Shown here in pieces: positions 1,456 through 52,469 of a DNA stretch of 58,736 nt. The position numbers and the translations under genes are program-made. Source of the DNA: an uncultured Aquificales bacterium. Lineage in GTDB: Bacteria > Thermosulfidibacterota > Thermosulfidibacteria > Thermosulfidibacterales > Thermosulfidibacteraceae. The stretch's first letter is position 1. Every line of letters starts with the position of its first letter. The notes below the pieces were generated by a model, which saw nothing but the letters and a program-made list of their open reading frames with translations, did no database searches and had not been told where the DNA came from. The stretch spans positions 27,424-86,159 of the forward strand of contig CAYVOC010000002.1 of assembly GCA_964453345.1 (NCBI GenBank), written 5' to 3'.

Positions 1456-1467
1456 CCTCTCACCCCC

Positions 1468-3084: not shown

Positions 3085-3108
3085 GGGTCAATCCTCCTCA
3101 CACATTTT

Positions 3109-5103: not shown

Positions 5104-5113
5104 AGCGCCCTCC

Positions 5114-5416
5114 TCACCACTTCAACAGATTGAAGGAGTCTATGTTAACACTGAGCCTGTTTCTGAATATAGAGACCACTATGGCAAGGCCCACCGCAGC
5201 CTCACCCGCAGCAACAGTTATAACAAATATGGCCATTATCTGCCCGGCAACACTCCCCAGATGGGAAGCAAGCCCTATAAAGGCGATATTCACGGCATTC
5301 AACATAAGCTCTATGCCCATCAGCACTATAAAGACATTCCTCCTGCCCAAGGCCCCAAAAAGCCCTATGGCAAACATTAAGAAGGAGTATATCAGCACAT
5401 GGTTCAAGGGTATCAT
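5114..5416 (-). CDS. nuoK: NADH-quinone oxidoreductase subunit K
   Basis: 100 aa; [20 protein letters not shown]. Confidence 0.97.
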
Positions 5417-5419
5417 GGC

Positions 5420-5938
5420 CTACCTCTCCAGCTTGTTTTTGGCAAGAACTATAGCGCCAACCATGGCAGCAAGCAAAAGAACGGATGCCACCTCAAAGGG
5501 GAACAGATACTTGGTATAGAGAAGGGCACCTATACCCTCTGTGTTTCCGCCGTATTTGGCCGCCTCAGCCGCAACAGCTCCTGCCGTCTTGCCTGAAAAG
5601 CCCACATAGGCTATGGCGGCGAACTGGGCGAAAAGCAGAAAGGCCAAAAAGGCTGCTATTATCCTTTGCCCCATGTCCGGCTTCAGCTTGTCCGTCTCCC
5701 CGGCCTTAACCAGCATGATCACATACAGCATCAATCCCACAACTCCACCCGCATAGACGAGCACCTGGATAGCCGCCAGAAGCTCCGCCTTCAGCAGGAC
5801 AAAGACAGCGGCCATGAAGAAGAAGGTTATTATAAGACATATGGCCGAGTGAACCGGATTACGCCTGGTCACCACCAAAAGGGCAAATATCAGGGACAAA
5901 GCGGCAAATATATAGAAGAAGATCTGTGTTGAACCCAT
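5420..5938 (-). CDS. nuoJ: NADH-quinone oxidoreductase subunit J
   Basis: [24 protein letters not shown]. Confidence 0.96.
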
Positions 5939-5950
5939 CCTACTCCCCCT

Positions 5951-6391
5951 TCACTTCTTGAAAGTCCTTTCCCACTTCTTATAGTCCTCGGTGAGCTTGT
6001 CTATATCAAACTTAAACCAGTCTCTCTTATAGGTGGCACCCTCATAGAAGGTGGTCGTTTCAAGGGCGTTAACCGGACATATCTCCACGCAGAAGGCGCA
6101 ATATATGCACCTTGAAAAATCTATGTTGAACTCAACCGGATGCCTCTCCTTGCCCTTGCCCTCACCCTTCAGGCTTATACACTGGGCCGGACAAACCCTG
6201 GCGCACTGACCACAGGCTATACACTTAAAGGACCCATCCTCGTTCTTCACAAGCCTTATGAAACCGCGGAATCTGGGAAAGGGTTCCAGCTTCTCCTTGG
6301 GATACTGGACGGTTATGGGCTTGGTAAAGAAGTAGTGCAATGTTCTTCTCAAACCGGTTATCAGATCCTTCATCAAGACCTTGGCAACCAT
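5951..6391 (-). CDS. nuoI: NADH-quinone oxidoreductase subunit I (2x[4Fe-4S])
   Basis: Two CxxCxxCxxxCP motifs; TVQYP...RFRG. Confidence 0.97.
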
Positions 6392-6401
6392 CGGCTCCTC
6401 C

Positions 6402-7352
6402 TCACACCAGCATCATCACAATGCCTGTAACAAGGATGTTGGCCAGCACTATGGGCAACATGATCTTCCAACCTATCCTCATAAACTGATCATACCTGTA
6501 TCTCGGGAAGGTAGCCCTGACCCATATGAAGAAGAAGACGAAGATGAACATCTTTATAAGGAACCAGAGCCATCCCGGAAGTATGGGACCCTTCCAGCCC
6601 GCAAGGAAAACTATGGTGGCGATGGCGGAAACTATCAGCATATTCGCATATTCAGCCAGGAAGAAGTAGGCAAACTTCATGCCGCTATACTCGGTATGGA
6701 AACCAGCGACCAGCTCCGATTCAGCCTCGGGCAGGTCAAAGGGAACCCTGTTGATCTCACCCAAGGCAGCTATAATGTAGATGACAAAGGCCACAGGCTG
6801 ATAAACGATCAAAGGAACCTTCTGAACCTCAACTATCTTAGCGAGATCAAGGGATCCGGCTATCATAAGAGGGCCTATGAGAGAAAAGCCGAGAAATATC
6901 TCATAGGAGAACATCTGGGCCGCGGATCTCAGCCCTCCCAAGAGGGAGTATTTGCTACCGGAGGACCACCCGGCAAGGATTATACCCATAACGCCAACCG
7001 AGGCAATGGAAAGAATGTAAAGAAGACTTATGTTCACTCTGGTTATCATGAAATTCTTGTCTATGGGAATAACCGCAATAAGTGGCAAGGCGCACACCAA
7101 ACAGAGTATAGGCGCAAAGTAGAAGGTAAGCCTGTAGGCCTCGGTGGGAACTATATCCTCCTTGAAGAAGAGCTTCAAACCGTCGGCTATGGGTTGAAGC
7201 AAACCATGGGGACCAACCCTCATGGGCCCCATTCTCACCTGCATGTGTCCTATAACCTTCCTTTCCAGATAGGTGAGATAGGCCACAAAGAGCAGAGTGA
7301 TAACAAAAACCACTATGATTCTTAAAAGAGCAAGCCCGATGTCATGCCACAT
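6402..7352 (-). CDS. nuoH: NADH-quinone oxidoreductase subunit H
   Basis: [49 protein letters not shown]. Confidence 0.98.
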
Positions 7353-7361
7353 CTTCGCCTC

Positions 7362-8552
7362 CTACCTGTCAACCTCACCAAGCACTATGTCTATGCTTCC
7401 TATGGCGGCTATAACGTCCGCCACCATGTGTCCCTTAACAAGCTCCGGCAAAGCGATAAGATTGGCAAAAGAGGGTGTTCTGATCTTCAACCTGTAGGGT
7501 CTGGTCGAACCATCCGAAACGATATAATACCCCAGCTCTCCCTTGGGAGCCTCGGTGGCCATGTAAACCTCACCAGCAGGCGGCTTTATCACCTTGGGGA
7601 CCTTGGCCATGACGGGGCCTTCCGTCTTTTCAAGATACTCGACGCACTGCTTCACTATCTTGCAGGACTCAAGCATCTCCTTGCGCCTGACAAGATACCT
7701 GGCGTAAACATCGCACCCATCAAAGACCGCCACCTCAAAGTCCAGCTCGGGATAGACAGAATAGGGCTGATTGCGCCTCAGATCCCAGTTCACACCGGAA
7801 CCCCTCAAGCTCGGACCGGAAAGCCCAAGGGCCTTTGCCTTCTCAGCGGATATCTTGGATATGTTCACCGTTCTGGAGAGCCATATACGGTTGGAATAGA
7901 GCAGATCGTCGTAGTCCTTCACCCTTGAGGGGAATATCTCGCAGAACTCCTTAACCCTATCGAGAAAACCCTCGGGCAAATCGGCAGCCACACCACCTAT
8001 CCTGTAGAAAGAGGTGATGAGCCTTCCTCCCGTAAGCATCTCAAACATATCGAGAATCATTTCCCTTTCACGGAAACAGTAGAGGAAGACGGTCATGGCA
8101 CCGATATCAAGGGCGTGGGTTGCAAGCCAGAGAAGGTGGCTTGAAATCCTGGCAAGCTCGGCCAGCAAAACCCTTATGTATTCTGCCCTTTTCGGAACCT
8201 CTATACCCATGAGCTTCTCAACGGCCAGAACGTATCCAAAGTTCATGGCGGGAGACGCCAAGTAATCCAGCCTGTCGGTCAAAGGTATTATCTGGTGGTA
8301 GGTCCTGGCCTCTGCGAGCTTCTCGGTTCCTCTGTGAAGGTATCCTATGACAACCTCCGTATCAACGATCCTTTCACCCTGAAGCGACAGGATCAAACGC
8401 AGCACTCCGTGGGTGGAGGGGTGTTGAGGACCCATATTCACCCAGAGATCCTGGGTCTTTATAGTCTCCCTCATCAAATCATCTTCAACCTGACCGAGGG
8501 AAGTGCCCTTAGCCATAAGCTCCTTGAACTGCTGCTCCTCCTTCACGGCCAT
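7362..8552 (-). CDS. nuoD: NADH-quinone oxidoreductase subunit D
   Basis: NMGPQHPSTHGVLRL, GYLHRGTEK, DRLDY, DIVLGEVDR; no NiFe CxxC ligands; start moved to ATG 8552 behind a GAGGAG SD. Confidence 0.97.
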   Translation of the reverse strand: MAVKEEQQFKELMAKGTSLGQVEDDLMRETIKTQDLWVNMGPQHPSTHGVLRLILSLQGERIVDTEVVIGYLHRGTEKLAEARTYHQIIPLTDRLDYLASPAMNFGYVLAVEKLMGIEVPKRAEYIRVLLAELARISSHLLWLATHALDIGAMTVFLYCFREREMILDMFEMLTGGRLITSFYRIGGVAADLPEGFLDRVKEFCEIFPSRVKDYDDLLYSNRIWLSRTVNISKISAEKAKALGLSGPSLRGSGVNWDLRRNQPYSVYPELDFEVAVFDGCDVYARYLVRRKEMLESCKIVKQCVEYLEKTEGPVMAKVPKVIKPPAGEVYMATEAPKGELGYYIVSDGSTRPYRLKIRTPSFANLIALPELVKGHMVADVIAAIGSIDIVLGEVDR

Positions 8553-8563
8553 GACCACGCTCC

Positions 8564-9148
8564 TCAAAGCTTGTTATAGTAAGGCAAGTGCTCTCTGAGC
8601 CACTTCTCCCTGTATCCGGGAGGCCCCTCCAAGGGATAATCCTTCCTGAGAGGATGCCCCTCCCAATCCTCCGGCAGCAGAATTCTCCTCAGATCCGGAT
8701 GGTTTGCAAACCTTATTCCAAGCATGTCAAAGGCTTCCCTCTCAAACCAGTTGGCAGAGGGCCAGACCTCGCATACGCTCGGGACCTCTTCGTCCTCGGC
8801 TAAAGAGACCTTCAACCTCACCCTTTTGGCATGGGGAATGGAAAGCAGGTTATAGACCACCTCAAGGGGCTTTTCCCTCTTGGGATAGTGAACGCCACAA
8901 AGATCCGCCAAGTAATCGTATTTCAAGTCTTCATCGTCCCTGAGAAGCTTGCACACATCCACTATAAACTCCTTCTTTATCCTCAAACACAGGCAATCAC
9001 AGTGGAGTTCAGCCTCCTCTATAGCCTCCGGGAATTTAGACTTCACCTTCCTGTATTCGGGAAACTTGTTGAAATCCACCTTGGGTTTTTCCTGCTGCTC
9101 CTCTTTGGGTTTCTCCACCTTCTTAGCCTTGGGCTTCTCCTCAGCCAT
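8564..9148 (-). CDS. nuoC: NADH-quinone oxidoreductase subunit C
   Basis: [41 protein letters not shown]. Confidence 0.97.
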
Positions 9149-9151
9149 CTG

Positions 9152-9628
9152 CTACCTCCTGAGCACCTTTTCCTGGAAGATCTTCTCCTGAAGCCTTACC
9201 ACACCATACATGAGACCTTCAGGTCTGGGAGGACAACCGGGAACATACACATCCACCGGAACTATCTTATCCACCCCCTGAACCACATGGTAGGTGTTGT
9301 AGATACCCCCAGAATTGGCACAGGAACCCATAGATATAACCCACCTGGGCTCAGGCATCTGATCGTAAACCTTCCTCAGCACCGGAGCCATTTTGAGGGT
9401 AAGGGTTCCGGCGACAATCATCACATCGGACTGTCTGGGAGTGGCCCTGAAGATAACACCGAACCTGTCAAAGTCAAAGCGGGACGCACCCGCCGCCATC
9501 ATCTCAATGGCGCAACAGGCAAGACCAAAGGTCATGGGCCAAAGGGATGACGCCCTGGCCCAGTTAACAACCTTGTCAATCACCTCAAAAAGCTTGTTAT
9601 CCGGCAAGCTCCTCTCTATCACTCCCAT
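9152..9628 (-). CDS. nuoB: NADH-quinone oxidoreductase subunit B
   Basis: [26 protein letters not shown] (N2 cluster ligands). Confidence 0.98.
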
Positions 9629-9984
9629 TCCAACGCTCCTTTCGCCCAGGCATAGATATATCCAATAAGAAGAATCACAATAAACAGAAACATTTCAACA
9701 AAACCCCAGAGGCCAAGCTTCTTATACATGGCCGCCCAGGGATACATGAAAACCGCTTCAACATCAAAGAGCAAAAAGAGCAGGATTATCACAAAGAACC
9801 TGATAGGAACCCTGACCTTGGCGGGCATAAGGGGATTGATACCACATTCATAGGCGGAGAGCTTCTCATCATAGGGCTTATTCGGCCTGACCAGATAGGA
9901 AACGATAAGGGTAACGACACCAAATGCAATAGCAAGCACAAAAAGGATCAAAACTGGAACATACGGACTTATGTGCTGATACAT
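9619..9984 (-). CDS. nuoA: NADH-quinone oxidoreductase subunit A
   Basis: [26 protein letters not shown]. Confidence 0.97.
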
Positions 9985-31828: not shown

Positions 31829-33817
31829 CTATTTCACCATGTGCTTGAGCAGGGGAGCTATGGTCAGCGAAACTATGGACATGAGCTTGATGAGGATGTT
31901 CATGGCGGGACCGGTTGTATCCTTGAAGGGATCACCCACAGTATCACCGACAACGGCAGCCTTGTGGGCCTCGGATCCCTTACCGCCGAAGTGTCCGGCC
32001 TCAATGTATTTCTTGGCGTTGTCCCAGGCACCACCGGCGTTGGCCATCAGTATTCCCAGAAGCACGCCGGAAAGGGTTGCGCCGGCAAGCATTCCACCGA
32101 GGGCCTCGGGACCAAGCAGGAAGCCCACAAGCACGGGAGCTATGATGGCACCCACACCGGGAGCGATCATCTCCTTAAGGGCGTTGACGGTGGCGATGTC
32201 AACGCACCTGGCGGGATCGGGCTTGGCCTTACCCTCAAGCAGCCCGGGAATCTCCCTGAACTGACGCCTTATCTCCTCAACCATGGCGAAGGCAGCCCTA
32301 CCAACCGCCCTCATGGTCATGGCGCCGAGCACGAAGGGAATGGCGCCGCCGATGAACACGCCGGCAACCACATCCGCCTTTGTAACGTCAATGCTCTTGA
32401 GGCCAACCGTGCTGGAGTAGGCGGAGAAGAGAGCCAGAGCGGTCATGGCAGCGGAACCGATGGCGAATCCCTTACCTATGGCAGCGGTGGTGTTGCCGAG
32501 GGCATCCAAGCTATCGGTTATCCTTCTGGTTTCGGGACCAAGCTCCGCCATCTCAGCGATACCACCGGCATTGTCGGCAACGGGACCGTAGGCGTCAACG
32601 GACATGGTAACACCAATGGTTCCAAGCATACCCACCGCGGTCAAAGCTATTCCGTAAAGGCCAGCGGCCTTGTAGGCGAAGAAGACGCCCAAAGCAATAA
32701 GGAGCAGGGGCAGACCAACGCTCTCCATACCCACGGCGAATCCCTGAATAATGTCAGTTGCGGCACCGGTCTGGGCGGACTCGGCTATAGTGACAATGGG
32801 CTTACCAGAGGTGTAGTATTCGGTGATGAGACCGATGGCAATACCAACAACGGTTCCTATCAGTATGGCCCAGAAGACTCCAGTGGGAAGTCCAAGTCCC
32901 TTGGAAACGGGATAGGCCAGAACCACAAAGAGTATAGCCGCCACAAAGGTCGAATACCTCAAGGCAGCGGCGGGGTTCATGTTCTTGAAGATAACCATGG
33001 AGAGAACCGCAATGATGGAGGCACACAGACCGATCATTATCATGATGATGGGGAAGACCATCCAGCGGAAGGTCTCCTGAGGAGCAAGCCCCATGGAAAC
33101 GGCAATGGCTATACAGGCAACAACCGACTCAACATAGGACTCGAAAAGGTCGGCTCCCATTCCGGCGACATCACCCACATTGTCACCAACGTTATCGGCG
33201 ATAACACCAGGATTTCTGGGGTCATCCTCAGGGATTCCCGCCTCAACCTTACCAACAAGATCCGCTCCCACATCGGCGCTCTTGGTGTAGATACCACCGC
33301 CAACCCTGGCGAACAGGGCAAAGAAGGAGGCACCCATGGCGAAGCCGTTCAACACCGAAGGCTGAACTTCACCGAAGAGCAGGAAGAGCACACTCAGCCC
33401 CAGAAGGCCCAGGCTGGCGACGGAAAGCCCCATCACAGCGCCGCTGAAGAAGGCTGTGGCAAGGGCCCTGTCCTGTCCATACTGGTTGGCAGCAGCCGCA
33501 GTTCTCACATTACCCCTGGTGGCGGCCTTCATGCCGAAGAACCCTGCCAGGGCGGAGCAGAAGGCACCGATCACAAAGGCAACACCCGTCCAGAATCCAA
33601 GGAAGATGGCTAAAAGAACGGCCACGATGATCACAAAAATGGAAACGATTTTATACTCCCTCTTCAGGAAAGCCATGGCACCGGCGTGAATCATCTCGGA
33701 AATCTCATACATAACCTCGGTGCCGGTGGGTTGGGACTTCACGTAGAGAAAGATCAGTCCAGCGATCACCAACCCCAGGATTCCCAACAACGGCGCATAG
33801 ACTACCCAGTATTCCAT
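31829..33817 (-). CDS. hppA: Membrane-integral cation-pumping pyrophosphatase (K+-dependent)
   Basis: [47 protein letters not shown] (K+-dependent Ala), [11 protein letters not shown]. Confidence 0.97.
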
Positions 33818-36071: not shown

Positions 36072-36290
36072 CTAATACATCTCCATCTGCTTCATCTTCT
36101 GCTGAAGCTTTCTGAGCTTCTTGCGCGCCTTGAGAAGCTTCTTTCTGCGCCTCTGGGTGGGCTTCTCATAATACATGGCCCGCTTGATCTCCTTGATCAA
36201 ACCTTCCTTCTCAATCTTTTTGCGCAGCTTCTTCAAGGCGGCGTCAATATCCCCATCAACCACAACAGCAGCGTTAACGACCCTGCTCAC
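36072..36290 (-). CDS. rpsU: 30S ribosomal protein S21
   Basis: [29 protein letters not shown]. Confidence 0.93.
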
Positions 36291-36309
36291 CTACAACATC
36301 CCCCCTTTC

Positions 36310-37974
36310 CTAAGCGGTTTCTTCGCAAAGGTTATCCATTTTGCTTCCAAAGTCAAGCTCGGAAAGAATTTTTCCTATTTCATCCAGCAACCTGTCAAGC
36401 CCTTCCCTTTTAAGAGCGGATACCAGAATGCCTCCCGATTCCCCAATCACCCTCTTCATGCCCTCATCCAGAAGATCAGCCTTGTTGTAAACCACTATCC
36501 TGGGCTTATGGGAAAGCCCCAGCTCCGACAGTATCTCCTCCACCGCTTCCATCTCCTCCTCCATAAAGGGACTCGTCACATCAACCACATGAAGAAGCAA
36601 ATGGGCATCCTCCAGCTCCTCAAGGGTGGCCCTGAAGGCGACCTTGAGATCCTCGGGCATGCTTCTTATGAAGCCCACTGTATCGGTCAGAATACAGCGG
36701 CCCACTCCGGGGACAAAGAGGACCCTGTTGGTGGGATCGAGGGTCGCGAAGAGCTTATCCTCGGCAAAGGCGTCCGCCCCGGTAAGGGCGTTAAGAAGGG
36801 TGGTTTTGCCCGCATTGGTGTAACCCACAATGGAAACAACGGGAACACTCGACTTCTGCCTCCTCTTCCTTCTCTCCCTCCTCTGCTTCCTCAACTCCTC
36901 AAGCTGATCCTCAAGAACCGCTATCCTTTTCTTGATCCTTCTTCGATCAATCTCCAGCTTGGTCTCACCGGGTCCCCTTCCACCGATGCCACCTGCAAGC
37001 CGGGACATGGCCTCTCCCCTGCCAATTATCCTCGGATACATGTATTTGAGCTGTGCAAGCTCCACCTGTATCTTACCCTCACGGGAAATGGCCCTTTTGG
37101 CGAAGATATCCAGGATCAGCTGATTCCTGTCTATCACCTTGAGGTCCGTAAGCTCGCTTATGGCGTTCACCTGGGCGGGGGAGAGGGCCTGATCAAATAT
37201 CAGCATGGTGGCTCCCAAGTAAAGGGCCTTTATGATAAGCTCCTGAAGCTTTCCCTTGCCCATCAAGTATTTGGGGTTGTATCTCGCCACCCTCTGTATG
37301 ACGGTATCAAGGACCTTCACCCCGGCCGACTCGGCAAGCCTGACAAGCTCCTGCATGGAGTATTCCGCATCCATCCTCGATGCCTTGGCAACCACAGAAA
37401 CAAGAATCGCCCTCTCCTCATAGCTTTCCGTCTCCTTGAGCTGCATATACCTTTCCATCTCGGCCTCAAGATCCGCCACAAACCCCTCAAAATCCAGATC
37501 CACCCTTGAGGGATGGGGCCACCTCATAAAGTCCCACCTTTTGCCCTCGGGATTCGGAGGAAGAAGATAGGCCATCTCAACCTCCCCGGGAAGCCCGTCC
37601 TCCCCAACCCTCACAACCACCATGGCGTCAAGCCTCAGCATGGCAAGATCGGTAAGATCCTCCTCATCCACCATGGTCTTCCCGAAATGGGTGTGGATAC
37701 AGCGTAACCCCTTCAGCCTCCCCGGGAAGTATCTGAAAACGGAAAGATCCGGAATAACTATGCGGTGTCTATCCCCCACTATCACGTGCGTGATGTTGCC
37801 CCTCCTGTCCACAAGAAGACCTACCTGTCTGCCTATGCTGTGGGACACCTCAGAAAGGGCCCTGGCAAGCTCCGGCGTCACAAGAAGGCCCCTGCACCTT
37901 CTCCTGTAAAGGCGTTCGAGGGCCCTTATCTCGCTTTTCTGCAACCCCTTCAGTTCACCGTAAACCCTGCCTAT
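36310..37974 (-). CDS. hflX: GTPase HflX (long N-terminal form)
   Basis: LILDIFAKRA, RGPGETKLE-DRR, GYTNAGKT, LFATLDPT, DTVGFI, NKAD; start inferred at ATA 37974 behind GGAGGT. Confidence 0.93.
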   Translation of the reverse strand: MGRVYGELKGLQKSEIRALERLYRRRCRGLLVTPELARALSEVSHSIGRQVGLLVDRRGNITHVIVGDRHRIVIPDLSVFRYFPGRLKGLRCIHTHFGKTMVDEEDLTDLAMLRLDAMVVVRVGEDGLPGEVEMAYLLPPNPEGKRWDFMRWPHPSRVDLDFEGFVADLEAEMERYMQLKETESYEERAILVSVVAKASRMDAEYSMQELVRLAESAGVKVLDTVIQRVARYNPKYLMGKGKLQELIIKALYLGATMLIFDQALSPAQVNAISELTDLKVIDRNQLILDIFAKRAISREGKIQVELAQLKYMYPRIIGRGEAMSRLAGGIGGRGPGETKLEIDRRRIKKRIAVLEDQLEELRKQRRERRKRRQKSSVPVVSIVGYTNAGKTTLLNALTGADAFAEDKLFATLDPTNRVLFVPGVGRCILTDTVGFIRSMPEDLKVAFRATLEELEDAHLLLHVVDVTSPFMEEEMEAVEEILSELGLSHKPRIVVYNKADLLDEGMKRVIGESGGILVSALKREGLDRLLDEIGKILSELDFGSKMDNLCEETA

Positions 37975-41642: not shown

Positions 41643-42221
41643 CTATCCACACATAAAAAGATGCAGAACACAGCCCACAAATAAGGGAATACTCAGGTTG
41701 TCGTCAATCCTAAAAACCGTTTCCGCAAGACTTCCCAGAACCCCGGCGATCACAGAAACCTCAAATCCAACAAAGAGACTGCCCAGGACAGAGGTAAGCG
41801 CCACAAAGGCCAAGGCTCCCTCCCAGCTCAACCTCCTGTTCCAAGGTATGGGCCTTCGCCCCAAAAGCTTACCAAAAACCGTGGAAGCAGCATCCCCATA
41901 GGCTAAGGCACACACCGCCGCCTTGGCAGCCACAGGACAAAAAAGCAGCAGCGCCAATCCGGCACCGAAGCCGTAGATAATGGCCCCCCTGCCCGGAAGC
42001 CCCATGTTCTGGGGCCTTTCAAGCAGTTTCAAAAGGGGATCGGCAAAGCCTATGGGGGACACCATACTGTGCCACAGGGAAAGTCCCAGACCGAGAAGGG
42101 CCGCCAGCACCAGAATCCAGCCAACAGAAGAACCCCACCTGTCGAAGGCCAGAAGGATCACCGTTCCGTTGAAGGCGTGAAACAGCTGCCTCCTCAACTC
42201 AAGGCCCGATAGGACACCCAT
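41643..42221 (-). CDS. CTP-dependent polyprenol/diacylglycerol kinase family protein (phytol/dolichol kinase-like)
   Basis: RRQLFH, GDAASTVFG, SWEGALA, IDDNLSIP; true start ATG 42221. Confidence 0.82.
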   Translation of the reverse strand: MGVLSGLELRRQLFHAFNGTVILLAFDRWGSSVGWILVLAALLGLGLSLWHSMVSPIGFADPLLKLLERPQNMGLPGRGAIIYGFGAGLALLLFCPVAAKAAVCALAYGDAASTVFGKLLGRRPIPWNRRLSWEGALAFVALTSVLGSLFVGFEVSVIAGVLGSLAETVFRIDDNLSIPLFVGCVLHLFMCG

Positions 42222-43138
42222 CAAACCACCCCGCAGAGGATTAAGCCCACAACCACCCCCACCATCCCTCTGAAGAGCTGCACAAACATCCAGGCCCTCG
42301 CTCCCCTTTTCACCCCATACATGGCCGTATACCGGGGAAGAATATTTATCAAGCCTCTTATGGGAACGCCAAACACATAGCCCCAAACCATTCCAAGCAG
42401 CACCTTTCCCGGAGGAAGGCCAAGATCCATGAGCCTGCCGGCCACCACAGCCCCAGCCGCAAGATGAAGGGCGTGGGCCAAGGATATGGACATCACATCG
42501 GCGGAAAGACACCTCAAGGGGATCCTGGAAAGAAAGCCCTTTACAACATCCATAACTCCGAATTTAAAGAGAAAGTGGATTACAAAAAGGGAAGCCATGA
42601 CCACCGCAGAAACCCTCAAGGACATCCTCAAGGACTCCTTAAAGGCCTCCATGGCACTTTTGGGTTCAGGCGCCACCTCAGCAAGGTCAGACTTCACCGG
42701 CCTTCCAGAGCCGGCGCGCCTCATCCGGTAGAAGACGAGCATTCCCGTAAGAGAAACCACAAGGCTTATAGAGAGCTGGACGCAGAGGTAGGCAAGCCCC
42801 ACCCACCCCACCAGGGGAACCGTGATAGCGATAACAAGAGGGGCGAAGGAAAAGAAAACGGGAAAATTTATAAACATAAGCCCGGGGATAAGCTCCCTCT
42901 CATCTATCCTGCCCTCGTTCAGGACCAAAGCCAGGAGAGCCTCTCCCGCGAAACCTGCGACAAGGGAAGTGAAGAATATCAGCACAAACTCCCTCGGTAT
43001 CCCGAACCTGACAAAGACCGGAGAAAATCTGGACTCAAGCCACCCCGCTACACCCCTACCCTGAAGATAGCGGGACACAAAAAGACCACCCAAAAGTATG
43101 ACAAAAACCTCCAGCGGCACCTTCACAAAGTAGGGCAT
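42221..43138 (-). CDS. Membrane protein, nucleoside-recognition (Gate) domain-like
   Basis: Multi-[26 protein letters not shown]. Confidence 0.65.
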
Positions 43139-43214
43139 AACCCAAAGCTATCCCACAAACAAAAGAACAGTCAACATCTATACAAGTCCTCCCCAAAGCT
43201 GTATAAATAACGGC

Positions 43215-44331: not shown

Positions 44332-44817
44332 ATGCAGGAAGAGAGGCTGGAAATATCCCATAAGAGAAGAATAACGAGGCTCATAGACCACATAGAAACC
44401 AGCATACAGATCCTCATAGCCTTCAGTCTGCTCCTCATCGCCCTTGCCCTTCTCATCCACACCATAATACACACCGTTCAACAGCTATCCACAGGGAAGA
44501 ATGTGATACACACCACCATAAAGGGGATTCAGGACATACTCTTAGTGATCATAATCCTCGAGATACTGTGGACGGTGGTGAGCTTCATAGAATCAAGCAC
44601 CATCCCCTTAGAACCCTTCCTCATAATAGCAATCATCTCAAGCGTCAGAGGCCTCATCCTTCAGAGCACCAAAACCATAGAAGCCACAGGGCATGAACTG
44701 AACCAGGTGATAATAGAGATCGGAATCCACGGATTATCCATTTTAGTGCTTGTGATAGCTCTATACATCCTGAGGAAAAGCAGGAAGTTTACCTCTCAAA
44801 CAGTTAAAAAGGGCTGA
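44332..44817 (+). CDS. PsiE-like membrane protein
   Basis: 4 [29 protein letters not shown]. Confidence 0.8.
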
Positions 44818-44844
44818 GGGAGGAAATCTCCCTCAGCCGGTTTA
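44806..44844. terminator. Bidirectional intrinsic terminator
   Basis: 11-bp stem GGCTGAGGGAG-GAAAT-CTCCCTCAGCC (44812-44838) between convergent genes. Confidence 0.85.
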
Positions 44845-44845
44845 C

Positions 44846-46177
44846 TCAAATCACCCCCTCTTCCTTCAACTCCTCCAGTTCCTTTTTGGCGTAGTTCATG
44901 AAGATCTTGTAGATGTATTCGTTATCGGCACCAACAGGGCGGCAGATCCACTTTACCCTGGGCGGGGTTTCCGTCATCTTCCAGGGCTGGGTGCATATCA
45001 CAAGCTCGCCATACACAGGATCGTTGAACTTAATGAGCGTTCCCCTCTCCCACCAGTTTTCCGTGTGCATGGCATCCCAGGCGGAAACCACCTTTCCGGG
45101 AACCACAACACCGCCCTTGCCGCTTTCCTTGGCCTCCTTGTTTGCCTTCATGACTATATCAAAGATCTCCTGATAGTTCTTATCCACCGTCCACTTCTCT
45201 ATCTCATGATAGGCGGCCTTCTGGTTCTCGAAGTTCAGCCTTTCAAAGACCGTTGGATACTTCTCCTTCAGATCCGGACGCTCTATAATTTCACACAGCA
45301 AGGCCCAGTTGGGATCGGCAAAACCGGACAGGAAGCAGTATCCATCCTTGCACTTAAAGTAAGTGTAGCAGAAAACTCCCGCATCAAGGTTTCCAACCCT
45401 CTCCACATTCTCTCCGTAAACCTGGTAATAGGTCAGGTTGTAATTTATCATTCTGCCGTATGCCTCAGCGGGAGAAAGATCTATCATCTGTCCCTTACCG
45501 GTCTTGTGCCTGTAGTGAAGGGCCACCAGTATGGCGAAGGCGGCGTAGGCACCACCCGCATACCAGCCCATCCAGTTGCCCTGCTTTGTGGGAACCTCCC
45601 ACTCCTTGGGATCGCTCGGATCCTCCACATACTCTCCGGAAACATAGGTGATACCGCTCATGGCCTGGTCAATCACATCAACATCGGCCTTGTTGCATGC
45701 GGCCTTTGGTCCAAACTGTCCGTAGGTGTATATGGCGCAGTAGATAAGACCGGGATTCTCCTCCCTCAACTGTCTGTAACCTATACCCCACTCATCCATC
45801 GTTCCGGGAAGGAAGCTCTCTATAACCACATCCACCTTCTTGGCAAGCTTTTTGAAGATTTCCCTTCCCTTCTCGGTCTCAAGGTTGAGGGTTATGTGAT
45901 ACTTGTTCCTGCCCTCATTCAAATACCCGAGACCCTCTCCCTTGTGGGTAACCCCGAAGGGAGTGAACTTTCTGGCCGGATCCCCCTCGGGCGGCTCTAT
46001 CTTTATAACATTGGCCCCAAGCTCCGCCAGAATGGAGGAGCAGAAGGCACCGGCTATATTCGCACAGGAACAGTCTATAACCCACAGATCATCCAGGGCC
46101 TCTGGCTTACGCCAGGCCTCCCTCGGATCGTCATGCTCCCTTATCCAATCTGCCCAAGGCTTTTTGATCTCAGTCAT
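44846..46177 (-). CDS. Family III (CaiB/BaiF) CoA-transferase, type B subunit (catalytic Asp replaced by Trp)
   Basis: [38 protein letters not shown] at the Asp position. Confidence 0.9.
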   Translation of the reverse strand: MTEIKKPWADWIREHDDPREAWRKPEALDDLWVIDCSCANIAGAFCSSILAELGANVIKIEPPEGDPARKFTPFGVTHKGEGLGYLNEGRNKYHITLNLETEKGREIFKKLAKKVDVVIESFLPGTMDEWGIGYRQLREENPGLIYCAIYTYGQFGPKAACNKADVDVIDQAMSGITYVSGEYVEDPSDPKEWEVPTKQGNWMGWYAGGAYAAFAILVALHYRHKTGKGQMIDLSPAEAYGRMINYNLTYYQVYGENVERVGNLDAGVFCYTYFKCKDGYCFLSGFADPNWALLCEIIERPDLKEKYPTVFERLNFENQKAAYHEIEKWTVDKNYQEIFDIVMKANKEAKESGKGGVVVPGKVVSAWDAMHTENWWERGTLIKFNDPVYGELVICTQPWKMTETPPRVKWICRPVGADNEYIYKIFMNYAKKELEELKEEGVI

Positions 46178-46201
46178 CCTTCCATACCTCCCAACCTGTT
46201 T

Positions 46202-47542
46202 TTAGGGATAAAGGACTCCAGATTTGCCATCCCAATCTTCAGGCGGCTTTCTTCCCGGCATATCGTTCCACTTGCCTATAATGCCCTTCTCCTCCAGCTC
46301 CTTGATCCTATCCCAGCTCAAACCAAGGAACTTGGTGAGGACATAGTAGGTGTCAAAGCCCACGGGTCTTCCGGCCCACTTGATCCTTCCGGGAGTCTCA
46401 CTGAGCTTTGGAGCAACCCCTTCAAGGTAAAACTCTCCATAAATGGGATCCTTAACCAGCCACTTAAAGCCGCGCACCTCAAAGTGGGGATCGGTGTATA
46501 TGTCCTTGGCGCTGTGGACCTTCTCAGCGCCAAACCCGTATTTCTGGGCCAGTTTATCAATGTCGGGCCACACCAGGCTTGCCACCCACTCCTTCACTAT
46601 CTTGAGCAACTCCTCGGCATTCTCAGGCTTTGTCCTTTCAATGTTCGTGGCAAACCTGGGATCGTCGGCAAGCTCAGGCCTGCCCATTGCCTGGCACAGG
46701 CCCCTGAACTGCTCATCGGTGGCGCAACCTATGGCAACGAACTCCTTGTCCTTGGAGAGGAAGATATCGCTGGGGCATATGGCCACATCCCTGTTCCCGT
46801 ATCTGTCCCTGGGTTTTCCGGTAAGGTGCTGGTAGATCCAGGTCCAGTCCATTGCCCTCATGATATTTTCGGCCTGGGACAGCTCTATATACTGACCCTT
46901 GCCGGTCTTCTCCCTGTAGTGAAGGGCCGCAAGCACACCCACAGCCGCCATTATTCCGCCGTAAAAATCACACAGCCAGATCCCCGATTTCATGGGAAGC
47001 CTTCCGGGGAAACCGGAAATCCAGGCCTCTCCCGACTCAGACTGAGCAATGGCATCGTAGGAAGGCCTGTCAACATAGGGTCCCCACTGACCGAATCCGT
47101 TGTTGGCAATGTAGATGAGCTGAGGGTTGATCTCCTTCATCTGGCGGTATCCTATGCCCCACCTGTCCAAGGTTCCCGCCCTCAAGTTCTCCACGAAGAC
47201 ATCCGCCCTTCTTATAAGCTCCATGAAGATCTCTTTGCCCTCATCGTAGTGCAGATCCAGGCCAATACTGTATTTGTTCCTGGCCACCTTGATAAAACCG
47301 ATGGCCTGATTCTTGTAGAAGCGTCCCCAGGGGGTAAGGGACCTCATGGTGTCGCCCATGCCGGGCATCTCGATCTTTATCACCTTGGCCCCGAACTCCG
47401 CGAGCAACCCGGGGGTTTCGGGACCAAGGATGAGGGTGCAGAACTCAACAACAGTGATATCGTCCAGAGCCTCCGGCTTTTCAAACACCTTCTCAATAGA
47501 AAACTCCTGCTCAGCCCATTTCAGGAAATCTTCCTGTGCCAT
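46202..47542 (-). CDS. Family III (CaiB/BaiF) CoA-transferase, type A subunit (catalytic Asp present)
   Basis: [45 protein letters not shown] 47542 behind GGAGG. Confidence 0.92.
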
Positions 47543-47574
47543 AAGTTTTCCTCCCTTGGCTGTTTTTCGGAAGT

Positions 47575-47606
47575 TTAATAAAATCAAACGGGCATTATTT
47601 TGTCAA
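47575..47606 (-). promoter_or_regulatory. Possible sigma-70 promoter for the second CoA-transferase pair
   Basis: TTGACA (47606-47601) with AT-rich TTTTATTAA at about 17-nt spacing. Confidence 0.45.
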
Positions 47607-47634: not shown

Positions 47635-48987
47635 TCAAATAACCCCGGACTCCTTCAACTCTCTGAGTCTGGTCGGCCCGTATCCTAACAGTTTTTTATA
47701 TACAAATTGGTTGTCTGCACCCACGGGCCTGCACACCCACTTTACCCTGCCCGGCGTTCTGGACATGGCGTGGAAGGAGGAATCCTGAATCAACACTTTG
47801 CCGTAGTGGGGATCCTCCACTTCAATAAAGGTCTTCCTGATCCTCCAGTGCTCCCTTTCAAGGACATCCTTAGGCTCCTCAAGTCTTCCGGTGACAACCG
47901 TTCCCTTCTTATCAGGACGCCTGCTGTATTCGGTTATTATCTCCAGAAGCTCATCGGAGGTGTGGTTCTGGGTCCACTTCTCTATCTCGTGTTGGATCTT
48001 GGGCTGATTCTCAGGCGTCAATCTTTCCTTAATAGTGGGGAACCGCTCCTTCAAATCGGGCCTGTTCATAATCTCACACAGAGCAGTCCAGTTGGGATCG
48101 GTAAAGCCTGAAATGAAGGCGTATCCATCCTTGCACCTGAAATAGGAATAGGGGAAGACCGCGTAATCGTAGTTTCCGGCCCTGACCATCTTCCTTCCGG
48201 TCATGTGATAAAACTGGAAGAGGTAGTTTGCTATGGAGAAGAGTCCCTCAGGAGGCGAACAGTCTATAAACTGGCCCTTACCGAACCTATACCTGTGGAA
48301 CAGGGCAAGGTTTATGCCAAAGGCGGCCCAGGCGCCCGCAACATACCAGCCCATCCAGTTGCCATGCTTCAGGGGCCTTTTATACTCCTCTGGCACCTCC
48401 GGATCCAGCTCAGGCTCACCCGTAACGGACATTATAACGCCCCTTGCCTGATCATTCAGATCGTAATCGGGCTGGTTGGAGTGCTTTTCAGATTCACAGC
48501 CGAAATGCCCGTAGGTGTGAATGGCGCAGTATATGAGCTTGGGGTTTATCTTATTTAAAACATCGTAACCCAGCCCGAGAGAATGCATATAGCCCGGCTT
48601 GAAGGTCTCTATCAAAACATCGGCTTTAAGAACGAGCTTTTTGAAGATCTCCCTTCCCTCTTGGGTCTCAAGATTGAGGGTGATGTGATACTTGTTTCTG
48701 CCCTCAACTATGTAGGGAAGGCCGGCGTCCTTTATCATCATGCCATAGGGGGTCATCTTCCTCGCTATATCGCCACCGGGGGGCTCTATCCTTATAACCT
48801 CTGCCCCCAGCTCCGCCAGAATGGAGGAGCAGAAAAGCCCCGCAAAGCTGCCGTAGCTTACATCCAGAACGGTGATGTCGCTGAGGGCTTCAGGTTTGTA
48901 GGGTATATCCTCGGGCTTTGTTATGCTGTATATAAACTTTGCATAATCCTCGTTTATTGCCATTCCCACGATCTTCTTCTCATCCAT
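47635..48987 (-). CDS. Family III (CaiB/BaiF) CoA-transferase, type B subunit (catalytic Asp replaced by Trp)
   Basis: Close paralog of 44846..46177; GNWMGWY at the Asp position. Confidence 0.9.
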
Positions 48988-49014: not shown

Positions 49015-50349
49015 TTAAGGATACTTTACTCCAGATTTGCCGTCCCAGTCGGGAGGCGGACAGGTTGAGGGGATATTGGGGTTCCACTTAAATATAACCC
49101 CCTCTTGCTCCAGCCTTTTCACCTCTTCCAGGGGAAGCCCCAGGATATTCACGAATACATACTCGTTATCAAAGCCCACGGGCCTTGCACCCCACTTAAC
49201 GCGGCTGGGGGTCTGGCTCATCCTCGGAGGATAGGCCTGCTCCTTGAAGAAGCCGTAAACCTCGTCCTCATACTCCTGAATGGCCTTTCTCTCGTTGAAG
49301 TGCTCAGAATGATAGACGTCATCCACCTCAAGGACCCTGGTGGCGGCAAACCCGTATTTGTCAGCAAGCCTTATGATATACTCAGAACTCTTATCCTTAA
49401 CCCAGTCGGCTATCTCCTTCAGAAGGGCCCTGGCGTTCTCGTCCTTGAGCCTCTCAAGGGGATCCTTATACTTCTCAAACAGGTCCATTCTACCCATGGC
49501 CTTACACAGGCCCTCAAACTCCTCTTCGGTGAATGCGGTTATGGCAACCCAGCCATCGGCGCAGTCAAAAAGATCCGAGGGGCATATGGCGAGATCCCTG
49601 TTTCCAGCGCGGGGCCTGTTCTTACCCGTGAGATAGACGTATAACCAGGTCCAGTCCAGCATCCTTATAACGTTCTCCACCTGCTGCATATCTATGAACT
49701 GTCCCTCTCCCGTCTTTTCCCTGTAGTTCAGAGCGGCCACTATGGCCACCGCACACATCAAACCGTTTATCCAGTCTGCAATCCAGACACCGCTCTTTAT
49801 GGGCCCCCTATCCTCAAACCCTGTTATATAAGCCAAGCCTCCCATGGACTGGGCGATGGCGTCATAGGACGTCCTTCCCGTCCAAGGGCCCCAGCTCCCG
49901 AAACCGGACACGTGAAGATACACGATTCTGGGGTTAACCTCCCTCAGGACGCTGTAATCCACCCCCCACTGGGCCATCCTTCCGGGGGTGAGGTTGTCCA
50001 CCACCACATCTGCCTTCTCCACAAACTTCAAAAACAGCTCCTTCGCCTTGGGATGGCCAAGGTGCATGCCCACCCAGTAGCGGTTGTGCTGCTGCTCCCA
50101 CAAACCGGGGGACATATTCTTCCAGAAGTAAGCAAAAGGAGTAACAAAACGCATCTGATCCCCATGGGCGGGCTCAAACTTTATAACCTCAGCCCCGAAC
50201 TCCGCCAAAAAATCAACCGCAGCCGGTCCAAGAACAACGGCCGTGACATCAAGGACCCTGATGCCCTTCAAAACCTCCGGTTTTTCAAACAGCTTCTCCG
50301 GATCAAAAAGATTCCTAATAAGTTCTTGATAAGATGAAGCTTGTTTCAT
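49015..50349 (-). CDS. Family III (CaiB/BaiF) CoA-transferase, type A subunit (catalytic Asp present)
   Basis: [27 protein letters not shown]; close paralog of 46202..47542 (shared C-terminus [12 protein letters not shown]). Confidence 0.92.
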
Positions 50350-50462: not shown

Positions 50463-50498
50463 AAAAATAAATAAAAACGGGGCGGTTTTACCCGCCCC
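50463..50498 (-). terminator. Intrinsic terminator after the abfD-like gene
   Basis: Stem GGGGCGG/CCGCCCC (50479-50498) followed by a long T-rich tract on the minus strand. Confidence 0.8.
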
Positions 50499-50506
50499 AA
50501 AAATTT

Positions 50507-51934
50507 CTAACCAAGGTTTAATAAATCTCTAACCAGTTTCACCTTCTCCTCAACGTTGGCGAGGCGCTTGATGAAGAGGTTGGGTGTTATGGGGGAGCCG
50601 CCACCGTGCACCGCTCCTCCCTCGTGGGGACCGGCAACCCAGTATTCTATGAACTTTATCACCTTCATACGGGCTTCCGTGGGCACATCCGACCTTCCCT
50701 TGAGATAATGTTCTATGTATTTGCCTATCTCCGGATTCTTCAAATCTCTTTCGGAGGGGCAGGTGACGCATATACCGCCCGCAATATCCGCAAGATAAAC
50801 GATGGCGTCCCCGATGGCGGTGAAGCCCAGAATCTTTGAAACATTTGAATAGAGTCCATCGGGAAGCCATACACCGGAGGAAGTCTGCTTGGCCTCATAC
50901 CCCGCAGCCAAGGCGCAGGCGTAGCATCCCTCACAGCCCCTTATCATCTCGGTGATCTTGGCCTGTATATGCGAAGCATTGGGGACCCCATTATAGTCAG
51001 CCATAAGCTCCGCAGCACCGATTATTGTGTCTATGAAGCCCGCCTTACAGCCAGAGCCAACGTATCTGTGTATATTGGCAAAGTTGCCCACAAGGGGCGC
51101 GGCAAACTTATACTCCTCACACATGAAAACCCGCTCCCAGGGGATGAAAACATTGTCAAAAATCATAAGGCATGTGCCCCTGACGCCGTAGGGGTTGCCA
51201 AACTCCCACTCTCCATCCTCCCTTCTCTTTGCCTCAAAGGCGTTGTTCTGCATCACATAGATAAGCCCCTCGGCACCCGCCTCCACGGCAAAGGCAACAG
51301 CATAAGCCTTATCCTCCTCCTTCAAAGCAATGGTAGGCATAACAATAGTCTCATCCGCAGCCACAGCCCCGGACTGATGGGCCTTGGCGCCCCTCACCAC
51401 AATTCCGTCGGAGCGCTTCTCCACTATCTTCAGATACATGTCGTCCTGCTCGTGGGGCTTCTTGCTCCTGTCCCCCTTCACATCGGTGAGGGCACCGGAA
51501 AGGGCAAGGTCGTTCTTCTGGGCATACTTTATGTATTCCACAAGCCTCTTGTGGTATTCGGTTCCGAGCTGCTTATCCATCTCATAGGTGACGGTGTAGA
51601 GGGCGTTAAGGGCATCGGAGCCCACACACCTGTAGTTGCAGGTGGCAAGCCTCTGGCTGTAAAAACGGGCAAGCTTCAATCTTGCAAGCAGATCCTCCTT
51701 GGTGGTGTAAATATGCAGGAACCTGTTGACGGGCTCGTCTATAAACTGGGAGTGGGCGGTCGTCAGATCCTTATACTCATCGTGAAGGGCAAGCTCGTAG
51801 GTCAAGCCTATGGAGTCAACTATGGGCTTGATATTTGGATGATTCACAAAATCTGAAACCTTTTCCCCGTTTACATAAACCTTCAGCTGTTTTTTTGATA
51901 ACCTCTCCACGTATTGCTCTTTTGTGATTAACAT
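50507..51934 (-). CDS. 4-hydroxybutyryl-CoA dehydratase (AbfD)/HpaB-family FAD and [4Fe-4S] protein
   Basis: CNYRC and H-x6-C (HRYVGSGC) Fe-S ligands, [32 protein letters not shown]. Confidence 0.88.
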
Positions 51935-51950: not shown

Positions 51951-51979
51951 TTGATTTTTAATTATACTAACCGTATAAT
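51951..51979. promoter_or_regulatory. Promoter and candidate MarR operator between the abfD-like gene and marR
   Basis: Plus strand TTGATT-N17-TATAAT; palindrome ATTATAC-N5-GTATAAT (51961-51979) carrying TATAAT on both strands. Confidence 0.7.
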
Positions 51980-52031: not shown

Positions 52032-52469
52032 ATGCAGCAGACGAACCCGGCCGTTGAGGAAATCATACTGGGTATGAGAAACATGCGTCCATACATAAGA
52101 AAACTTTTCTCCTATGCCACAGACATGGCGGATGCTGAAATGCTTATTCTTTCACTGCTTTACAACTCACCGGACGGTAAGATGCTGTTAAGTCAGCTGC
52201 ACAACGAACTTGTCCCGGTAAGGGCAAGCAAACTCACCAACATCACCAACAAGCTTGAAGACAAGGGATACATAAAGAAGCAGCGCCTGAAGAGCGACAG
52301 GAGAAAGGTGATCATATCCATCACCCCCAAGGGCAGACACGCCTACGAAAAGTTTGAGGACGCCTTAAGAGAGGTGATCTCGAAAAACATTGACAGGCTA
52401 ACCGACGAGGAAAAGGAGACCCTTAAGAGGAGCTTCGTCATCTGGACAAAGCTCCTTGAGAACGTGTAG
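52032..52469 (+). CDS. MarR-family transcriptional regulator
   Basis: [25 protein letters not shown] wing motif; ATG 52032 behind GGAGG. Confidence 0.92.

Follow-up and report, generated by a model that had tools for sequence, protein, structure and literature searches.

A putative iron-sulfur flavoprotein of the AbfD family with a clade-wide replacement of catalytic residues, encoded beside family-III CoA-transferase genes in Thermosulfidibacterales

Introduction

Two carbon-fixation cycles of archaea, as well as the fermentation of gamma-aminobutyrate (GABA) and succinate, are commonly recognized by 4-hydroxybutyryl-coenzyme A (CoA) dehydratase, which is treated as their key marker, and the mechanism proposed for it rests on Tyr296, Glu455 and Glu257 of the Clostridium aminobutyricum enzyme, AbfD. 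In the scheme reportedly put forward by Zhang et al. in 2015, Tyr296 is deprotonated by Glu455 and reduces the flavin adenine dinucleotide (FAD), and a proton is supplied from Glu257 via Thr190. What, then, does a protein of this family do that keeps the ligands of the [4Fe-4S] cluster and lacks these residues? Such a protein, of 475 aa, is encoded on the minus strand at 50507..51934 of a 58,736-nt stretch of DNA (hereafter the window; positions 27,424 to 86,159 of contig CAYVOC010000002.1, assembly GCA_964453345.1) from an uncultured Aquificales bacterium that GTDB places in the Thermosulfidibacterales. We see about an even chance that it is an AbfD-type iron-sulfur flavoenzyme acting on an acid other than 4-hydroxybutyrate, activated by CoA transfer.

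Cluster ligands are kept and catalytic residues replaced

The open reading frame (ORF) is intact and starts with an ATG preceded by a GGAGG ribosome-binding site, and its composition is unremarkable (GC 0.494 against 0.50–0.52 nearby). Pfam recognizes HpaB_N (E 3.9e-91) and HpaB (E 1.6e-54) in the product. The best solved relative found with HMMER is AbfD itself (PDB 1u8v; E 6e-121, window residues 1-470 on 1-485), followed by the dehydratase of Nitrosopumilus maritimus (6vjr, E 3e-111), with HpaB monooxygenases at E 1e-41 and weaker. Cluster names for this protein in the Protein Atlas are limited to a generic 4-hydroxybutyryl-CoA dehydratase. Alignment to 1u8v places all four cluster ligands (AbfD C99, C103, H292 and C299; window C99, C103, H289 and C296) together with the Lys after the last Cys (K300; window K297). 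An earlier note, made from the letters of the window, had recognized this ligand pattern and argued against a simple HpaB monooxygenase; the alignment bears it out, and the NCBIfam HpaB equivalogs are far out of reach (171.9 bits against a cut-off of 480.2 for TIGR02309, 91.7 against 885.2 for another).

The same note had listed changed mechanistic residues by comparison with AbfD motifs. Those motifs match the PDB sequence, the quoted window motifs all occur in the translation, and a proper alignment returns the same picture: the equivalents of Glu257, Tyr296 and Glu455 are not retained and Thr190 is a Ser. AbfD E257 corresponds to window T254, Y296 to G293 and T190 to S188; in addition, Q101 is replaced by Y101 and A460 by G445. 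E455 falls inside a gap of four residues (Y-R-T-E in AbfD), and window G440 lies three residues ahead of H443. S188 retains a hydroxyl group at the site of Thr190, which is hydrogen-bonded to flavin N5 in AbfD. Next to T254, G253 occupies a position where half of the clade described below carries Glu, and E438 is poorly kept (6 of 26 close relatives). In the N. maritimus dehydratase, according to a preprint, activity is reduced by the exchanges E260Q and T194V.

A separate and widespread clade

A word-indexed search returned 16 clusters at 67–91% identity, below which identity fell to 52% and lower, and a full scan of representatives gave 263 proteins at E ≤ 1e-30. The alignment set comprises 285 sequences of 430–560 aa and is a biased sample, its 79 genome loci having been selected by variant-specific patterns; trees were built with FastTree and carry local supports only. 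Of these 285 sequences, 139 combine the ligands with Y101, T254 and G293, 56 carry Q, E and Y, the canonical residues, along with the motifs of the two solved enzymes, and the remainder show other combinations or are ligand-less. The variant forms a single clade with 144 members (138 exact, 6 near; local support 100), hereafter the YTG-type clade. Its sister is a small mixed group with other Fe-S variants, and the two together (n = 160, support 98) stand apart from the group containing the canonical clade. Separation from the clade with both solved and characterized enzymes, 1u8v and 6vjr, has a local support of 99–100.

Within the YTG-type clade the four ligands and K297 are invariant in 144/144 members, and the accompanying set is nearly so: Y101 in 142, S188 in 142, R252 in 143, T254 in 142, G293 in 139, W432 in 144 and H437 in 142, all of them present in the window protein. 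The YRTE segment that holds E455 is deleted in all 144. Canonical members have Q, T, G, E and Y at positions 101, 188, 252, 254 and 293 (each 56/56), M, L or I at that of W432 and mostly A at that of H437. Positions conserved within each clade but differing between them are 85, 100, 101, 188, 229, 252, 254, 293, 300, 427 and 428, with W432 and H437 as further hallmarks of the YTG-type clade. R90 is kept in 71/144 members and in 26/26 close relatives, and position 253 carries Glu in 72/144 and Gly in the window protein and 25/26 close relatives.

Since 139 of the 285 sequences show the residue pattern and the YRTE deletion is found in 144/144, the pattern is neither chance nor decay, and conservation in both bacterial and archaeal lineages speaks for a function under selection. 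A literature search limited to openly accessible papers returned no description of this clade. Four relative loci, two of them close, were found in a metagenome scan.

Predicted structure and proposed reaction

An AlphaFold2 model computed from a 24-row alignment has a mean predicted local distance difference test score (pLDDT) of 87.3. Compared with Foldseek, it reaches a template modelling (TM) score of 0.95 to both 1u8v and 6vjr, against 0.81–0.87 to HpaB-type monooxygenases, so that the structural comparison with AbfD suggested by the earlier note finds the fold retained. In the preprint on the archaeal enzyme, the Gly-Gly stretch just ahead of the E257 equivalent lines 'tunnel 1' behind the cluster, for which reason Arg252 should lie near the leaving-group side.

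Because the ligands are retained, conservation is strong and a whole set of functional residues is replaced, we favour an enzyme that is active and retains chemistry of the AbfD type while its catalytic apparatus is altered. It would have the AbfD fold and function with a [4Fe-4S] cluster and FAD, in a separate and widespread clade, with its own near-invariant Tyr101, Arg252, Thr254, Trp432 and His437 around cluster and flavin in place of the Tyr296/Glu455/Glu257 set. Acting on a short acyl-CoA, it would eliminate a gamma-substituent and/or shift an allylic double bond, and the product, a 2-enoyl-CoA, would be passed to crotonase and the beta-oxidation enzymes. The substrate would derive from a free acid activated by CoA transfer, probably not plain 4-hydroxybutyrate.

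CoA-transferases and other neighbours

Downstream on the minus strand lie four family-III CoA-transferase genes, all covered by CoA_transf_3 over their whole length (profile positions 1-366): CoAT1 (49015..50349, 444 aa, E 3.5e-113), CoAT2 (47635..48987, 450 aa, E 7.4e-102), CoAT3 (46202..47587, 461 aa, true start possibly later, E 2.1e-113) and CoAT4 (44846..46177, 443 aa, E 9.9e-98). By identity they are ordered A-B-A-B (A/A, CoAT1 with CoAT3, 48%; B/B, CoAT2 with CoAT4, 51%; A/B, 34–37%, and 34–35% for CoAT1 with the B types), and the A and B types presumably form two-subunit enzymes. All four share Asp163 and Gln167 (CoAT1 numbering), and Asp163 is a candidate for the catalytic Asp known from CaiB and Frc. 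Nine family-III genes are encoded in the 1.5-Mb genome, among them two pairs located elsewhere, one a third A-B pair and the other more distant.

A different arrangement is seen in Desulfurella, whose orthologues are 67–70% identical to the window protein. There, in 4/4 loci, the AbfD-like gene sits directly between an AbfT/But-like CoA-transferase gene and a crotonase gene on the same strand, and the best PDB matches of the transferase are 4-hydroxybutyrate CoA-transferases (E ~1e-43). The upstream part of the cluster encodes thiolase, DUF35, crotonase, ETF, a three-part biotin carboxylase system and methylmalonyl-CoA epimerase; in locus L005 the cluster continues with genes for 3-hydroxyacyl-CoA dehydrogenase, an acyl-CoA dehydrogenase plus ETF, and succinyl-CoA synthetase. 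Two unrelated CoA-transferase families thus flank close orthologues, family III in the window and AbfT/But-like in Desulfurella, which is why we propose activation of the acid by CoA transfer. One Desulfurella genome additionally has two short AbfD-similar ORFs (97 and 245 aa; L159:13564-14585) after the operon, which look like a broken second copy.

Neighbouring ORFs elsewhere were called by a longest-ORF rule and counted over 76 loci (L023, L051 and L077 had no AbfD-like ORF assigned to the family cluster and were omitted). Crotonase is the commonest enzymatic neighbour, within two genes in 8/76 loci, and sets of methylmalonyl-CoA mutase, epimerase and carboxyltransferase, read off maps, occur in 12/76. 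Three Archaeoglobaceae loci combine crotonase with this methylmalonyl-CoA set and an ADP-forming acyl-CoA synthetase. Other YTG-type genes are accompanied by URO-D with DUF169, by ribosomal genes (Dehalococcoidia), by an S-adenosylhomocysteine-hydrolase-like gene and a nucleoside-type ABC transporter (Archaeoglobi), by Fe-S maturation-type genes that follow (Hippea and others), or by a conserved small protein of unknown kind together with HdrD-like CCG/ferredoxin and Pyr_redox_2 proteins (Syntrophales). A substrate of the 2-hydroxyglutaryl-5-CoA type was considered and lost its support, leaving it purely speculative, when the '2-Hacid_dh' neighbour in six Archaeoglobi loci proved, by PDB search, to be a short S-adenosylhomocysteine-hydrolase-like protein.

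A protein of ~100–150 aa without a Pfam match is encoded directly upstream, on the same strand, at nine Syntrophales and Syntrophomonas loci (L047, L050, L054, L060, L071, L072, L073, L075 and L078), often with HdrD-like CCG and Pyr_redox_2 proteins; it may be a partner subunit.

The genome that carries the window encodes crotonases, acyl-CoA dehydrogenases, a Bcd/Etf-like cluster, a thiolase, a 3-hydroxyacyl-CoA dehydrogenase and two methylmalonyl-CoA-mutase-type genes. It has no AcetylCoA_hyd_C (AbfT-type) transferase gene, and none of its Fe-ADH or aldehyde dehydrogenase proteins reaches the equivalog cut-off for 4-hydroxybutyrate or succinate-semialdehyde dehydrogenase. On another contig of the same genome (C61:54-4862), an operon encodes an AMP-forming ligase, two HGD-D subunits resembling 2-hydroxyacyl-CoA dehydratase/benzoyl-CoA reductase and a BcrAD/BadFG-type activator, with related loci L179-L182; within the phylum, three genera have the HGD-D pair, that of the window and two more. 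A 2-hydroxyacyl-CoA dehydratase was tried as an explanation of the transferase array and set aside, as this operon is paired with the AMP-forming ligase and not with CoA-transferases.

Competing explanations

Several points speak against 4-hydroxybutyrate as the acid: the pattern of residues, the new Arg, a genome in which the 4-hydroxybutyrate genes are missing, and a puzzle in the literature, as two papers (PMC9802188, PMC3949148) report that Archaeoglobus, a carrier of such homologues, fixes carbon by the Wood-Ljungdahl pathway only and that the role of its homologues is unclear. The earlier note had judged the protein probably not a true dehydratase and had placed its substrate among other acyl-CoAs. 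As the protein falls outside the canonical clade and lacks three of the four residues reported important for dehydration, a changed substrate or mechanism is a fair inference; the stronger part of that claim is held back by Desulfurella orthologues in a classical arrangement. Several observations weigh against the reading that we favour. A true 4-hydroxybutyrate route would be expected to resemble the Desulfurella operon, the exchange of Thr190 for Ser is conservative, R90 and K300 are kept in 26/26 close relatives, and half of the clade (though not the window protein) has a Glu one residue before T254. Furthermore, the only stretch of the model with pLDDT below 50 (439-448) is the shortened loop at the deletion site, the transferase array lacks an AbfD-like neighbour in most genera, and the neighbours across the 76 loci are heterogeneous and often housekeeping genes, so that context says little about the substrate.

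The main alternative, less likely in our view, is a genuine 4-hydroxybutyryl-CoA dehydratase/vinylacetyl-CoA isomerase in which the catalytic tyrosine and bases have shifted in sequence and not in space. Tyr101 would stand in for Tyr296, His437 for Glu455, and Ser188 with Thr254 for the Thr190-Glu257 relay; in favour of this, the gain of Y at Q101 is tightly coupled to the exchange of Y296 for G (at least 139/144 in the clade, 0/56 in canonical members). Also in its favour are the Desulfurella gene order with its thiolase genes, the dehydrogenases of L005 and the three Archaeoglobaceae loci, and the crotonase, Bcd/Etf, 3-hydroxyacyl-CoA dehydrogenase and thiolase of the window's genome could use crotonyl-CoA. 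It sits poorly with the clade-wide loss of three of the four residues reported as important for dehydration, with a genome that has neither an AbfT-type gene nor a clear 4-hydroxybutyrate dehydrogenase, with the new invariant Arg near the cluster, and with the reported reliance of Archaeoglobus on the Wood-Ljungdahl pathway alone. An enzyme that has lost radical dehydration and only performs a non-redox delta-3/delta-2 isomerization of the vinylacetyl-CoA type, its cluster being structural or a Lewis acid, seems improbable. AbfD does have a second, isomerase activity (as its PDB name states), the radical-generation residues are gone from a conserved thioester-binding framework, and crotonase is the commonest neighbour; but it would leave without a reason why four ligands are strictly conserved and why a new set of Tyr, Arg and His is as well, and crotonase-family isomerases are already present in the genome. 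Least credible of all, and very improbable in our view, is a redox or reductive enzyme that takes electrons from partner proteins and is no lyase, or else an inactive relic. The HdrD-like CCG/ferredoxin, Pyr_redox_2 and small proteins at Syntrophales loci and the Fe-S maturation-type genes of Hippea and others would suit a redox role, yet such partners are absent from the window and from close relatives; a relic is at odds with the intact frame and with 16 clusters at 67–91% identity.

The reading that we favour, an active AbfD-type enzyme on another acid, can be carried one step further, albeit tentatively: YTG-type proteins may constitute another class of ketyl-type Fe-S/flavin enzymes, the second and a widespread one, with their own radical start (Tyr101, His437) and their own substrate, a view to which we give somewhat less than even credence. 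Arg252 would then hold the leaving group or a neighbouring anion beside the cluster, and carboxylated or otherwise gamma-substituted butyryl-CoA compounds would be candidate substrates.

Regulator, transcription units and distribution within the phylum

Divergent from the AbfD-like gene, a MarR-family regulator of 145 aa is encoded on the plus strand at 52032..52469 (Pfam MarR and SarA/Rot winged-helix matches; ATG behind GGAGG). The 97-bp spacer between the two genes contains a sigma-70-like promoter with 10/12 matches (51951-51979) found by promoter scan and, over its -10 hexamer, a 7-5-7 inverted repeat read from the sequence (51961..51979, no strand; arms ATTATAC and GTATAAT). The repeat is partly conserved in L003, L001 and L100 and is a candidate MarR operator.

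At the gene's opposite end, a consensus scan marked a minus-strand terminator-like hairpin at 50478..50499 (8-bp stem with 7 G-C pairs, then a T-run), 8 nt past the stop codon and ~128 nt ahead of CoAT1. The scan returned 10 sites against 8.8 expected in the region, so the hairpin is weak on its own, and it is absent from the shorter spacer of the close relatives L003 and L100. Since this hairpin follows the stop codon and a TTGACA-like box ahead of CoAT1 is conserved, the AbfD-like gene may be its own transcription unit. A second hairpin from the scan, also on the minus strand (44812..44838; 11-bp stem, 8 G-C pairs, T-run), ends the transferase array.

Among 18 genomes of the GTDB phylum, 17 have an AbfD homologue; that of the window is 99.9% complete and has a single one. 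The window's form (90–93% identical) is confined to its own genus and one other, and the remaining genera carry a form 40–47% identical, within the YTG-type clade but on another sub-branch and alone among housekeeping genes. In the tree the window's form groups with Desulfurellales (clade of 28, support 100), where it is present in 8 of 28 genomes. The distribution has the look of a transferred gene that displaced the copy already resident.

CoAT1 homologues occur in 18/18 genomes of the phylum, and the A-B-A-B array is readable by coordinates in 13/18 and was mapped in five loci (L163, L164, L165, L167 and L169), none of which has an AbfD-like gene adjoining it. Depending on the genus, the array adjoins an aminotransferase gene, genes for branched-chain-type binding proteins, a POR-gamma-like gene together with one for a PaaK-like ligase, or a 4HBT thioesterase gene. 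The array itself suggests a pair of heteromeric transferases that serve the catabolism of amino acids or organic acids. As to 4HBT-fold thioesterase genes, one separates the AbfD-like gene from the transferases in a close relative (L001:5628-6092), and another stands between two transferase pairs, on the opposite strand, in a different genus (L165:7707-8219).

The MarR orthologue is found once per genome in 17/18 genomes. In 4 genomes it adjoins the window-type gene, in 3 (one genus) the other YTG form, in 2 (two genera) the transferase array and in at least 4 an adenine deaminase gene. This recurring three-way adjacency of MarR, AbfD-like gene and array hints at one regulon, and it carries only moderate weight because the genomes are kin and the MarR neighbours vary. 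The supposition of the earlier note that the neighbouring CoA-transferases produce the substrate therefore stands in part: a single-copy regulator adjoins either the AbfD-like gene or the array, depending on genus, against which must be set an array conserved without an AbfD-like neighbour and the hairpin between the two in the window.

Further AbfD-family paralogues occur in relatives within the phylum. At L133-L137 a Tyr replaces the His cluster ligand, and the gene belongs to a conserved operon with a PaaK-like ligase, a gene of 141–148 aa (a universal-stress protein in L135), a ~470-aa unknown protein, ETF and acyl-CoA dehydrogenase; L131 and L132 have another type, in which Asp stands at the position of E257 and Tyr at that of Y296.

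Other genes in the window

The minus strand of positions 1-9984 carries a complex-I gene row without genes for NuoE, F and G, in the order three antiporter-like subunits, chain 6, a 4Fe-4S ferredoxin-type protein, an NADHdh-family protein, the 49, 30 and 20 kDa subunits and chain 3. This gene content suggests an 11-subunit type with ferredoxin or another donor. ORFs of 248–444 aa at 36175-37509 (+), 41643-42512 (-) and 42464-43210 (+) have no Pfam match at E ≤ 1e-6. An 837-codon plus-strand ORF (45065-47578) lies antisense to two of the CoA-transferase genes and is most likely not a gene, as are other long antisense ORFs such as 31841-33613 over the H+-pyrophosphatase gene; these mislead longest-ORF calling.

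Implications

A natural clade that has the cluster and lacks Tyr296, Glu455 and Glu257 offers a ready-made test of the mechanism proposed for the dehydratase. Genes of the YTG branch should not be used as markers of 4-hydroxybutyrate pathways until they have been tested, and calls based on homology may be wrong. One survey inferred the cycle in Archaeoglobus and Bathyarchaeia, yet noted that the role in Archaeoglobus is unclear. Should YTG-type proteins constitute a second class, the so-called 4-hydroxybutyryl-CoA dehydratase genes found in Archaeoglobi, Bathyarchaeia, Syntrophales, Dehalococcoidia, Desulfurellales and this vent phylum would not be 4-hydroxybutyrate markers and would instead mark an undescribed step of acid breakdown. 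The role of the Archaeoglobus homologues becomes testable through the cultured Desulfurella acetivorans, which has a close orthologue in a clear operon.

Comparison with known systems

With AbfD (1u8v) the window protein shares the two-domain HpaB-type fold from end to end (41% identity in the Foldseek alignment, TM 0.95), the Cys-Cys-His-Cys ligands and the Lys after the last Cys. It differs in having Thr254 and Gly293, in the deletion of Glu455 along with three neighbours, in the Tyr that replaces Gln101 and in the new Arg252; it belongs to a different clade, and no AbfT or 4-hydroxybutyrate dehydrogenase gene neighbours it in the window. The likeness to the oxygen-tolerant dehydratase of N. 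maritimus (6vjr) is of the same kind, in fold (E 3e-111, TM 0.95) and ligands, whereas 6vjr keeps the Glu, Tyr and Glu equivalents and the window protein lacks the Glu that corresponds to E260. The HpaB monooxygenases (4-hydroxyphenylacetate 3-hydroxylase, 2yyg and others) have the HpaB_N and HpaB domains in common with it at 18–25% identity and a TM score of 0.83–0.87, and are without cluster ligands, as in the ligand-less outgroup of the tree.

The best PDB matches of the transferases are YfdE, SUGCT and formyl-CoA transferase (E ~1e-44). Like benzylsuccinate CoA-transferase BbsEF (9fn0, chains A and B), they come in two sequence types, as expected for two-subunit enzymes; the similarity to BbsEF is distant (E 1e-22 to 1e-34), and their pairing is suggested by the gene order. 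Leaving groups besides water are exemplified by gamma-eliminases of the acyl-CoA-dehydrogenase type, which remove phosphate from 4-phosphoacyl-CoA in the breakdown of levulinate and 4-hydroxy acids, or trimethylamine from gamma-butyrobetainyl-CoA. No kinase or betaine transporter gene lies near the window gene. These eliminases are, like the enzyme proposed here, flavoenzymes that give an enoyl-CoA, and they belong to another family that has no Fe-S cluster.

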